A DNA stretch of 27,491 nt from a virus, in IMG/VR virus record IMGVR_UViG_3300029914_000110. One strand, given 5' to 3'. The translations under genes were made by a program, and so were the position numbers. The notes beneath the pieces are model-generated. The model was given only the letters and a program-made list of their open reading frames with translations, had not been told where the DNA came from and ran no database searches. Position 1 is the first letter of the stretch, and each line of letters opens with the position of its first letter. Of the stretch, positions 23,667 to 23,802 are shown piece by piece.

Positions 23667-23802
23667 GCTGCCCCCGGCAGGATTCGAACCTGCGTCCTCA
23701 CCGTACTACACGTTCTAGAATCATGCCTTTTGTCTGGTGGGAGCGACCCACCTTGACATTAGGACGTACGCAATGGGTGCTCTACCACTGAGCTACGGGG
23801 GC
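23667..23802 (-). tRNA. Split tRNA-like gene. A canonical 5' acceptor plus D-arm and a canonical T-arm plus 3' acceptor (GCCCCCG / CGGGGGC) are separated by about 60 extra nt. The anticodon is unresolved.
   Basis: The 5' part is GCCCCCGTAGCTCAGTGGTAGAGCA.. and the 3' part is ..GCAGGTTCGAATCCTGCCGGGGGCA. The inner region holds the hairpin GGTGGGTCGCTCCCACC. It is too short for a group I intron. Confidence 0.3.

Follow-up and report, generated by a model that had tools for sequence, protein, structure and literature searches.

Short inserts interrupt oversized tRNA genes in the Lak megaphages and other huge phages, where they have been described as "enigmatic introns" (Devoto et al. 2019, PMC6784885). 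A tRNA-like body is also found in YrlA (Rfam RF02553), a bacterial and phage Y RNA that mimics tRNA (Chen et al. 2014, PMC4201824), and it is the basis of the engineered tRNA scaffold, in which a structured RNA takes the place of the anticodon stem-loop (Ponchon and Dardel; PMC3753655). Here we analyse a tRNA-like gene on the minus strand, positions 23802-23669, of a 27,491-nt stretch of phage DNA (IMG/VR record IMGVR_UViG_3300029914_000110; the whole stretch is hereafter the window), and compare it with viral and metagenome contigs that we designate by L-numbers (L002, L371 and so on; 9.7 Mb in the collected set). We propose, with a probability of about one half, that this gene specifies a non-decoding RNA in which a tRNA body serves as scaffold and a conserved, self-complementary loop is displayed to a partner.

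Like the Lak genes, the focal gene is an oversized tRNA gene of a large phage whose short insert, conserved between related phages, is no group I intron. The Lak inserts, however, were defined by in-silico excision and by intron-less alleles, whereas for the focal gene no excision restores a tRNA and no intron-less allele was found; its insert is further distinguished by a conserved three-way junction and by a conserved UUCUAG loop, which is met with at sites other than the anticodon arm as well. With YrlA it would share the character of a non-decoding RNA in which a partner-binding module is joined to a tRNA-like domain, the latter consisting of T arm, D arm and acceptor-like stem. In YrlA, however, the ends of the molecule form the Ro60-binding stem at the place of the anticodon arm, the acceptor is closed and the gene lies beside that of Ro60, whereas the focal RNA ends at an open acceptor and it is the extra module that is closed; no Ro60/TROVE gene was seen in the window, nor was a GNCGAA motif seen. 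The tRNA scaffold, with the Y RNAs the nearest analogue in function, likewise carries a foreign structured RNA grafted at the anticodon stem-loop and keeps the tRNA body for processing and nuclease resistance; that scaffold is a laboratory design, whereas the focal gene is a candidate natural counterpart.

A tRNA body with a branched domain at the anticodon arm

The locus encodes one tRNA-like RNA of 134-137 nt in a minus-strand tRNA array. The gene measures 134 nt including the discriminator, some 58-61 nt more than a normal tRNA, and is laid out from 23802 to 23669 as GCCCCCG-UA-GCUC-AGUGGUA-GAGC-A-[84 nt]-GCAGG-UUCGAAU-CCUGC-CGGGGGC-A. The Rfam tRNA model (RF00005) matches 23669-23802 of the minus strand end to end with 51 bits (gathering score 29, E = 2e-8), and in its alignment 77 nt occupy the place of 15 anticodon-arm positions. 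The original prediction had described one tRNA-like gene, with a structured insertion between its halves and a single acceptor stem linking them, and this picture holds: the 7-bp acceptor pairing GCCCCCG/CGGGGGC is Watson-Crick throughout, the canonical D and T arms are both found on the minus strand, and the strong hairpin that it had noticed between the halves is GGUGGG-UCGCU-CCCACC at 23752-23736. A 7-bp acceptor, a D arm with G18G19 and a T arm with a UUCRANY loop are thus present and fully paired; what the gene lacks of a canonical tRNA is a 7-nt anticodon loop (U33, purine 37) on a 5-bp stem, placed at the usual distance from the elbow. The fold energy is -57.2 kcal/mol, compared with -41.8 +/- 3.9 for 200 dinucleotide shuffles (z = -3.94), none of which folded as well. 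Default ARAGORN does not call the gene. A tmRNA has a tRNA-like domain lacking the D stem, a tag reading frame and pseudoknots; neither ARAGORN nor Rfam calls the element a tmRNA, and its D arm is complete. The sequence recurs, with 99.9-100% identity, in contigs of four independent ENA samples; the ENA runs of the source samples stand behind ERZ27249201, ERZ27249391, ERZ27248732 and ERZ27250069.

The 3' end is also unusual. Across the window and its relatives, CCA stands at the computed tail position in 96 of 104 tRNA calls (about 92%); the focal gene and its homologue in L371 end in A-GCA (in L371 A-GCA-A) and the homologue in L375 in A-GUC.

In place of the 17-nt anticodon arm expected of a tRNA, the gene has a domain of approximately 85 nt in which an extended helix leads to a three-way junction with two hairpins, as obtained by folding with the three tRNA arms held fixed. 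The extended helix consists of P1a and P1b, separated by a 2-nt UG bulge; the hairpins are the long, interrupted P2 and the short P3, after which a UA linker returns to P1 (coordinates in Table 1). The nine-base loop of P3, AUUCUAGAA, holds the self-complementary hexamer UCUAGA at positions 3-8. The P3 stem could gain an optional fifth pair, G-U, by drawing on G23726, the base with which P2 ends. The insertion replaces and extends the anticodon arm rather than forming the "giant extra arm" that had been suggested, if this is taken as a variable arm; an unrelated contig, L564, does bear the same hairpin within a giant variable arm.

Homologues, ancestry and the intron question

Homologues of the element are present in the related phages L371 and L375 (Table 1). 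That of L371 folds spontaneously into a cloverleaf whose anticodon arm comprises two 7-bp helices, separated by a 2x2 internal loop, and then a three-way junction, from which emerge a long hairpin and the hairpin GGCUG-GUUCUAGGG-UAGCC. In L375, a perfect anticodon stem runs on into the same design, with the hairpins GAACC-UUCUAUAGG-GGUUU and CGGCGGA-U-ACUAGU-UUGUCG. A covariance model built from the focal gene alone mainly finds every tRNA by its body and gives these two homologues just 28 and 22 bits; since it yielded no family alignment, the helices were compared by script. Every helix pairs in all three members although the helix sequences are unrelated, and all three have the conserved hairpin with a 5-bp stem, a 9-nt loop and a self-complementary hexamer at loop positions 3-8: UCUAGA in the focal gene, UCUAGG (with two G-U pairs) in L371 and CUAUAG in L375. 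The apex of the other hairpin of L371, CCUAGA, is the exact complement of UCUAGG, and the other hairpin of L375 carries ACUAGU.

In pattern searches, the exact insert had no match in the viral contigs; the pattern GGGTCGCNCCC..CAGAC gave, in the same contigs, mostly chance matches and the unrelated L049 family; and the 17-mer GGTGGGTCGCTCCCACC, a poorly chosen pattern, gave chance matches in the metagenomes, with no homologue among the matches listed. Patterns of the 3' end returned 0 and 4 irrelevant matches in the viral contigs and, in the genome collection, only ordinary CCA-less bacterial tRNAs and att-site repeats.

The conservation just described bears on the possibility that the gene is dead, that is, a tRNA broken by the insertion of a small element or a fusion of two tRNA remnants, in either case without function. 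Such a gene could well have lost its CCA and its canonical anticodon arm, and the sequence GUACG, which stands at both edges of the inner insert, can be read as a target duplication. Nevertheless, no flaw is seen in the acceptor, D or T arm, four samples have the sequence unchanged, and the architecture is kept with compensatory changes in L371, L375 and more distant contigs, so that we regard this explanation as highly improbable; the conservation in the two related phages likewise speaks against two decayed tRNAs having been fused, as had also been suggested. A mobile element or repeat was considered and rejected: there is no second copy of the insert in the window, and removal of the sequence between the GUACG repeats restores no tRNA.

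As for its ancestry, the element probably descends from a phage tRNA-Arg(UCU). Its acceptor, D and T arms are of the type seen in phage arginine tRNAs. The proposed descent draws on the following observations. First, the focal 3' half is 88-91% identical to the tRNA-Arg UCU and CCU genes of relatives, and the 5' half is closest to the Arg-UCU gene of L002. Second, the ordinary tRNAs scored with the focal covariance model are headed by the Arg-UCU gene of L002, with those of L370 and L365 in fourth and fifth place; an Arg-ACG and a His gene score alike. Third, the window has arginine tRNAs for CCU, ACG, UCG and CCG, and none for UCU according to ARAGORN, while AGA is used 29 times in 20 genes. 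Fourth, the Arg-UCU anticodon loops of relatives read CUUCUAA and share UUCUA with the motif. In the available sequence, L365, L370, L002 and L546 have a normal Arg-UCU and no element, and no Arg-UCU is seen where the element occurs, in the window, L371 and L375; because the contigs are short, this mutual exclusion is only suggestive. The main identity element for arginyl-tRNA synthetase (ArgRS) is A20. With U at position 20 and no CCA encoded, the sequence argues against ordinary charging.

We then considered whether the insert could be an intron. Group I and group II introns are roughly 200 nt or longer and have a conserved catalytic core. With 61-85 nt, depending on its delimitation, the focal insert is far too short, as had been predicted, and the proposed covariance-model searches gave the tRNA match described above and no match at E <= 10 (23370-24320) to group I or II introns or to any other Rfam family on the insert. 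The accompanying statement that group I introns are the only type in phage tRNAs is outdated in view of the short "enigmatic introns" of Lak megaphage tRNAs (PMC6784885). The intron search of ARAGORN, also proposed at the outset, does call a tRNA, namely tRNA-Tyr(GUA) with a score of 108 and a 61-nt intron at 32/33, but its anticodon stem has only three Watson-Crick pairs of five, and this model was rejected as weak. Since the same program names the three homologues Tyr (focal), SeC (L371) and Ile (L375), its intron models are arbitrary here. We also enumerated exhaustively all single excisions that join a prefix and a suffix of the D-to-T region into a 17-nt arm, and none gave five pairs together with a U33/R37 loop; the best had either four pairs with a non-canonical loop or three with a canonical one.

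Short inserts in or near the anticodon arm are also typical of the protein-spliced introns of archaeal and eukaryal tRNA genes. Unlike these, the focal gene has no bulge-helix-bulge, no canonical excision product and no splicing endonuclease in the window. Neither a bulge-helix-bulge (3-4-3) motif nor a relaxed variant of it is present in the focal element, L371 or L375, which have, respectively, a 2-nt bulge with a 5-bp helix and the junction, a 2x2 internal loop and a 5x6 loop; the proximal helix is unbroken in the homologues. The Pfam scan found no splicing endonuclease among the 20 open reading frames of the window, which is part of the genome only. No intron-less allele was found in 4 near-identical contigs or 12 related loci. 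Given that there is no canonical excision, no intron family, no bulge-helix-bulge and no second copy, a simple split gene is not supported; splicing by some other route is possible.

Such a route would make the gene a true intron-containing tRNA, from which an endonuclease and a ligase of phage or host remove the insert, possibly as two segments flanking P3, whereupon CCA is added and the product decodes as Arg(UCU) with P3 as the anticodon arm, as Tyr(GUA) or as an amber suppressor (CUA). There is something to be said for this. Besides the ARAGORN score, the P3 loop offers anticodon-loop-like contexts (U33-UCU-A37 for arginine, U33-CUA-G37 for amber); an Arg-UCU is missing from a window that uses AGA; Lak tRNAs have their "enigmatic introns" (PMC6784885); and oversized genes are common in large phages, where at least 74 of 121 pattern matches close with a 6-7 bp acceptor stem. 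Some of these regain a perfect arm on excision, as does the Ile-GAU gene of L541 once its 73-nt insert is removed, so some splicing may exist in such phages; moreover, relatives encode Tpt1/KptA (the splice-junction 2'-phosphotransferase), RlaP and an RNA ligase. However, quite apart from the imperfect excisions, the absent bulge-helix-bulge and endonuclease, the D loop without A20 and the missing CCA, an RNA with P3 as its anticodon arm would have to be cut four times and ligated twice and would keep a loop of 9 nt, the stem beneath that loop has anything from 5 to 9 pairs in the different members, in contrast to a real anticodon stem, and in L564 the hairpin stands beside an intact anticodon arm. 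We therefore consider a spliced tRNA unlikely, if a serious contender. The amber suppressor was rejected as a candidate, TAG being the commonest stop of the window, where it ends 9 of 20 genes.

The UUCUAG hairpin and its putative partner

The P3 hairpin is not confined to this family. A scan of viral contigs in which the sole demands were TTCTAG, followed at 20-50 nt by a T loop, and a GCA tail, with no stem required, found tRNA-like genes with the same hairpin in the unrelated contigs L548, L557/L562 and L564, all with a self-complementary hexamer at positions 3-8. They differ in the place of the hairpin: it is the tip of a long anticodon arm in L548, a branch of a three-way junction in L557/L562, where the second loop carries CCUAGA, again the exact complement of UCUAGG, and part of the giant variable arm in L564 (GUAGC-UUUCUAGAG-GCUGC). 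The identical loop UUUCUAGAG stands on different stems at 13588-13610 of the relative L002, within a permuted tRNA-like RNA, and in L020 as part of a tRNA-like cluster. The consensus of the loop is N-U-UCUAG-R-N. When seven sequences were trimmed to 5 bp and 9 nt, the stem was 100% paired and all five pairs changed on both sides; none of 500 shuffles reached the observed percentage of paired cells or the covariation score, while the count of pairs changed on both sides was matched by 179 of the 500. UUCUAG is invariant across the seven sequences, the loop pattern itself having been part of every search.

Two well-known RNAs offer comparisons. The dimerisation-initiation hairpin (DIS) of HIV-1 likewise has a loop of nine bases in which a self-complementary hexamer occupies positions 3-8, preceded by two bases and followed by one. 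There is no sequence relation, however: the flanking bases of the focal loop are not the conserved purines of HIV-1, its hexamer is nearly invariant instead of free to vary, and its predicted duplex is worth -5 to -9 as opposed to -11 to -14 kcal/mol. The pRNA of phage phi29 follows the same general plan as the focal insert, with a helix formed from two flanks, a three-way junction and two hairpins, whose loops are mutually complementary also in L371 and L557. In contrast to pRNA, the focal element has no corresponding Rfam match, lies inside a tRNA body and array, not at a genome end, and has no link to a packaging motor. The CCUAGA partner loops of L371 and L557 suggest, as far as sequence goes, loop-loop pairing; the near-invariant hexamer and modest duplex energies fit protein recognition at least as well. 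A second UCUAGA, complementary to the focal loop, lies at 23835-23840 in the D arm of a permuted element, 115 nt upstream of that loop; TCTAGA as such is not enriched in the window (4 sites, 5.3 expected).

Our model can accordingly be put as follows. The RNA would be cut from the array transcript like its tRNA neighbours, by RNase P at the 5' end and by trimming at the 3' end, and the tRNA body would confer stability and tRNA-like recognition. It would not decode, because the loop lies at least 13 helical steps from the elbow rather than 5 and no CCA is encoded; in L371 the distance from loop to elbow is about 22 steps, so that the geometry is not fixed. The grafted domain would instead show its UUCUAG loop to a partner, conceivably a loop-reading protein or, by pairing, a second copy of the loop or, in some members, a CCUAGA loop.

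Several points weigh against this scaffold reading. Expression, processing, the lack of decoding and the nature of the partner are all features that we infer. The perfect arm regained in L541, the splicing that it hints at, the Tpt1/KptA, RlaP and ligase of relatives and the legibility of the P3 loop as an anticodon loop, all set out above, make decoding after some processing step possible. Two of the seven sequences in the covariation analysis came from a scan that demanded a stem. Such hairpins are not enriched in the 9.7 Mb (29 seen, approximately 35 expected by our estimate), nor are DIS-like hairpins in long tRNA-like genes (10 of 97, 5.7 expected), where two apparent extra cases, L040 and L086, proved to belong to another insert class. 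No neighbouring protein is consistently shared by the four unrelated loci with the module. Finally, the predicted loop-loop duplexes are weak (-5.4 to -9.1 kcal/mol), and since UCUAG is nearly invariant, whereas dimerisation would tolerate any palindrome, sequence-specific recognition is favoured over dimerisation.

The scaffold reading can be taken a step further. It is possible, and we entertain it tentatively, that the nine-base loop N-U-UCUAG-R-N, self-complementary or matched by CCUAGA, belongs to an undescribed phage module which is grafted on tRNA-shaped carriers and acts as a tag, either joining tRNA-like RNAs by loop-loop pairing or recruiting a dedicated protein, the focal gene being a converted tRNA-Arg(UCU). 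The graft sites would then range from the anticodon-arm tip, three-way junctions and the variable arm to permuted, Y-RNA-like mimics; as protein partners one may think of repair enzymes, synthetase-like proteins or host nucleases that the phage has to neutralise.

The tRNA array and its other unusual elements

All annotated protein genes of the window lie on the minus strand, as judged by a Pfam scan of its 20 open reading frames (Table 1), and no close isolate phage was found for it. A major-vault-protein-like protein is also encoded by a related phage (L369:515-3037). The array comprises 13 ARAGORN tRNAs on the minus strand (17450-26911), in addition to several tRNA-like pieces that ARAGORN does not call. 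A promoter-like site upstream of the whole array, which is a consensus match only, may possibly mark the start of a polycistronic precursor.

Table 1. Coordinates of the focal element, its relatives and other window features (positions refer to the window unless a contig is named).
Feature	Location	Strand	Sequence or remark
Acceptor stem, 5' strand	23796-23802	minus	GCCCCCG; 7/7 Watson-Crick with 23670-23676; Rfam tRNA alignment
D arm	23779-23793	minus	GCUC-AGUGGUA-GAGC; G18G19 present; position 20 is U, not A
P1a, 5' strand	23773-23775	minus	CAU, pairs with GUG 23699-23701; alternative register ACC/GGU; from constrained and free folds and helix table
P1b, 5' strand	23766-23770	minus	CGUAC, pairs with GUACG 23702-23706
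P2, long interrupted hairpin	23726-23763	minus	CCU/AGG - UGUC/GACA - GGUGGG/CCCACC, loop UCGCU; includes the hairpin of the original prediction
P3 hairpin	23709-23725	minus	CAUG/CGUG; 9-nt loop A-U-UCUAGA-A at 23713-23721; conserved module
P1b and P1a, 3' strands	23699-23706	minus	GUACG, GUG
Variable loop	23694-23698	minus	AGGAC; Rfam alignment
T arm	23677-23693	minus	GCAGG-UUCGAAU-CCUGC
Acceptor stem, 3' strand	23670-23676	minus	CGGGGGC
Discriminator and tail	23666-23669	minus	A, then GCA where CCA is expected
Homologue in L371	L371:6705-6865		161 nt; acceptor GUCCCCG/CGGGGGC
Homologue in L375	L375:3179-3322		146 nt; perfect anticodon stem UCGCA/UGCGA running on into the same design
Hairpin-bearing gene in L548	L548		96 nt; hairpin at tip of long anticodon arm
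Hairpin-bearing gene in L557/L562	L557/L562		126 nt; three-way junction; stem GGUGAAG/CUUCACC, loop CUUCUAGGU, then small hairpin with loop CCCUAGA
Hairpin-bearing gene in L564	L564		153 nt; Leu(UAA)-like tRNA with intact anticodon arm CUCAC-UUUAAAG-UGAGU
Promoter-like site	27251-27280	minus	TTGACA-18-TATTAT, 11/12; consensus match only; upstream of whole tRNA array
ArgRS-like protein	22002-23075	minus	truncated, 357 aa; starts at HIGH-motif region, ends in DALR domain
rIIA	9540-11966	minus	
rIIB	8315-9547	minus	
Major-vault-protein-like protein	2484-4943	minus	819 aa; shoulder and repeat domains (PF11978, 3.5e-26)
Ku-like protein, HNH endonucleases, two R2K ATP-grasp proteins, PTH2 peptidyl-tRNA hydrolase	window	minus	

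With default ARAGORN, the array has tRNAs for only seven amino acids: Arg, Lys, Asn, Gln, His, Trp and Met. The same restricted set, with up to five Arg isoacceptors, is seen in the arrays of L365, L369-L372, L376 and L377. The tRNAs for these amino acids are typical targets of anticodon nucleases. The truncated ArgRS-like protein has more than 190 homologues in metagenomes, on contigs of large phages; those of L371 and L375 are 74-76% identical to it, and others occur in L370, L377, L372 and L365. Around the closest homologues, contigs have arrays for the same seven amino acids in which pairs of a normal and a long-variable-arm tRNA are frequent, and contigs of relatives also hold HisRS-like and TrpRS-like (TrpRS/TyrRS-like) fragments, RlaP, Tpt1/KptA, HNH and R2K proteins. 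At L545:7458-9267 an ArgRS-like gene is directly followed by an RNA ligase gene (PF09414).

These neighbours raise a more specific version of the scaffold idea, in which the RNA mimics tRNA-Arg(UCU) as a decoy that absorbs a host anticodon nuclease, or as a ligand of the truncated ArgRS-like protein or of RNA-repair enzymes. The seven-amino-acid array with its frequent pairs would suit such a role, as would the UUCUA that the loop shares with the CUUCUAA loops of relatives' Arg-UCU, the nearness of the ArgRS-like gene, at 600 nt in the window and at a short distance also in L371 and L375, and its succession by a ligase gene in L545; it also fits the view that phage tRNAs counter tRNA-targeting defences (PMC10264068). 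This support is purely circumstantial, however; the module also occurs in phages with no ArgRS-like gene seen nearby, and in L375 UUCUA is shifted by one loop position. We thus hold the decoy or ligand version to be quite improbable.

The array contains further oddities. Class II architecture is normally confined to Leu, Ser, Tyr and Sec tRNAs. Long, class II-like variable arms are found in the window on the minus-strand tRNAs for Lys(UUU), Asn(GUU) and Trp(CCA) (21870-21958, 23382-23474 and 26816-26911) and in relatives (L365, L371, L372, L370, L507, L509, L532, L542) also on tRNAs for His, Arg, Gln, Met, Thr, Cys, Val and Ile; genes of this kind, 85-93 nt long in relatives, often adjoin a normal-length gene with the same anticodon. 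A minihelix-like element of 55 nt (24414-24468, minus strand) has an acceptor GGGCUAG/CUAGUCC, a T arm and an encoded ACCA, without a D or anticodon arm, and reaches 30.7 bits with the Rfam tmRNA model, below threshold. Orphan T-arm motifs with no recognisable tRNA around them lie at 25127-25143 and 23337-23353, and a weak tRNA-like element, scoring 37.6 bits in Rfam and uncalled by ARAGORN, at 25367-25444, all on the minus strand.

On both sides of the focal gene stand permuted, YrlA-like tRNA mimics (window 23575-23661 and 23820-23945, minus strand), with further examples at L372:5023-5086, L365:7622-7725 and L002:13482-13700. In these, the 5' strand of the anticodon stem is followed by the T arm, a closed acceptor hairpin (CUGGUCGC-UUCG-GCGUCCGG), the D arm and finally the 3' strand of the anticodon stem. 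The Rfam YrlA model gives 22 bits to window 23575-23661 and 37 bits to L372, in each case less than the gathering score. Another hairpin recurs, its 5-bp stem closing a 14-nt loop that ends in GUGAGUAAGU (YCGNGUGAGUAAGU); it is present once in the window (23894-23902, minus strand, in GGUGG-CCGCGUGUGUAAGU-CCACC), four times in L365 (7393, 7442, 7664, 8142) and once in L371 (3096), always among tRNA-like elements.

Insert-bearing tRNA-like genes of other kinds are widespread. The pattern GGTAGAGC-N60-90-GGTTCGAATCC, with matches in the IMG/VR contigs L003-L122 (e.g. L009, L038, L055, L066, L040), gave at least 74 acceptor-closed tRNA-like genes with 60-90-nt inserts among 121 matches. A common class has inserts that start with UAU, followed by a hairpin and an ACAGCAA motif, and that sit after anticodon-stem position 28 or 29 with a complete anticodon loop downstream. 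In the family of L049:11636-11727, L145, L186, L221, L222 and L229, the acceptor is lengthened by 8 pairs (CCAUCAUC/GAUGAUGG), the "anticodon" stem has a 3-nt loop and an insert of about 50 nt precedes the T arm, so that these are clearly not decoding tRNAs. Further large-phage genes with inserts are L365:8670-8780, L541:9355-9501, L502:571-752, L505:18343-18469 and L530:2207-2326; among them are an Arg(UCG) with a 29-nt hairpin in the anticodon loop, several with T-arm-like sequences in the insert, and the Ile(GAU) gene, whose 73-nt insert itself holds a Met-like anticodon stem-loop, CACGG-CUCAUAA-CCGUG.

Taken together, we argue that at least one group of the oversized phage tRNA genes known for their "enigmatic introns" is not simply one of interrupted tRNAs; it is a conserved composite RNA made of a tRNA body, a branched domain and a nearly invariant loop motif. 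For annotation this is a warning, as default tRNA finders miss such genes and intron search mis-assigns them. The 19-nt hairpin, its palindromic loop and the non-CCA 3' end are testable objects. If the scaffold reading is true, nature would have its own version of the laboratory tRNA scaffold in the focal gene, and the tRNA-centred arms race between phages and hosts would include a new class of phage non-coding RNA.

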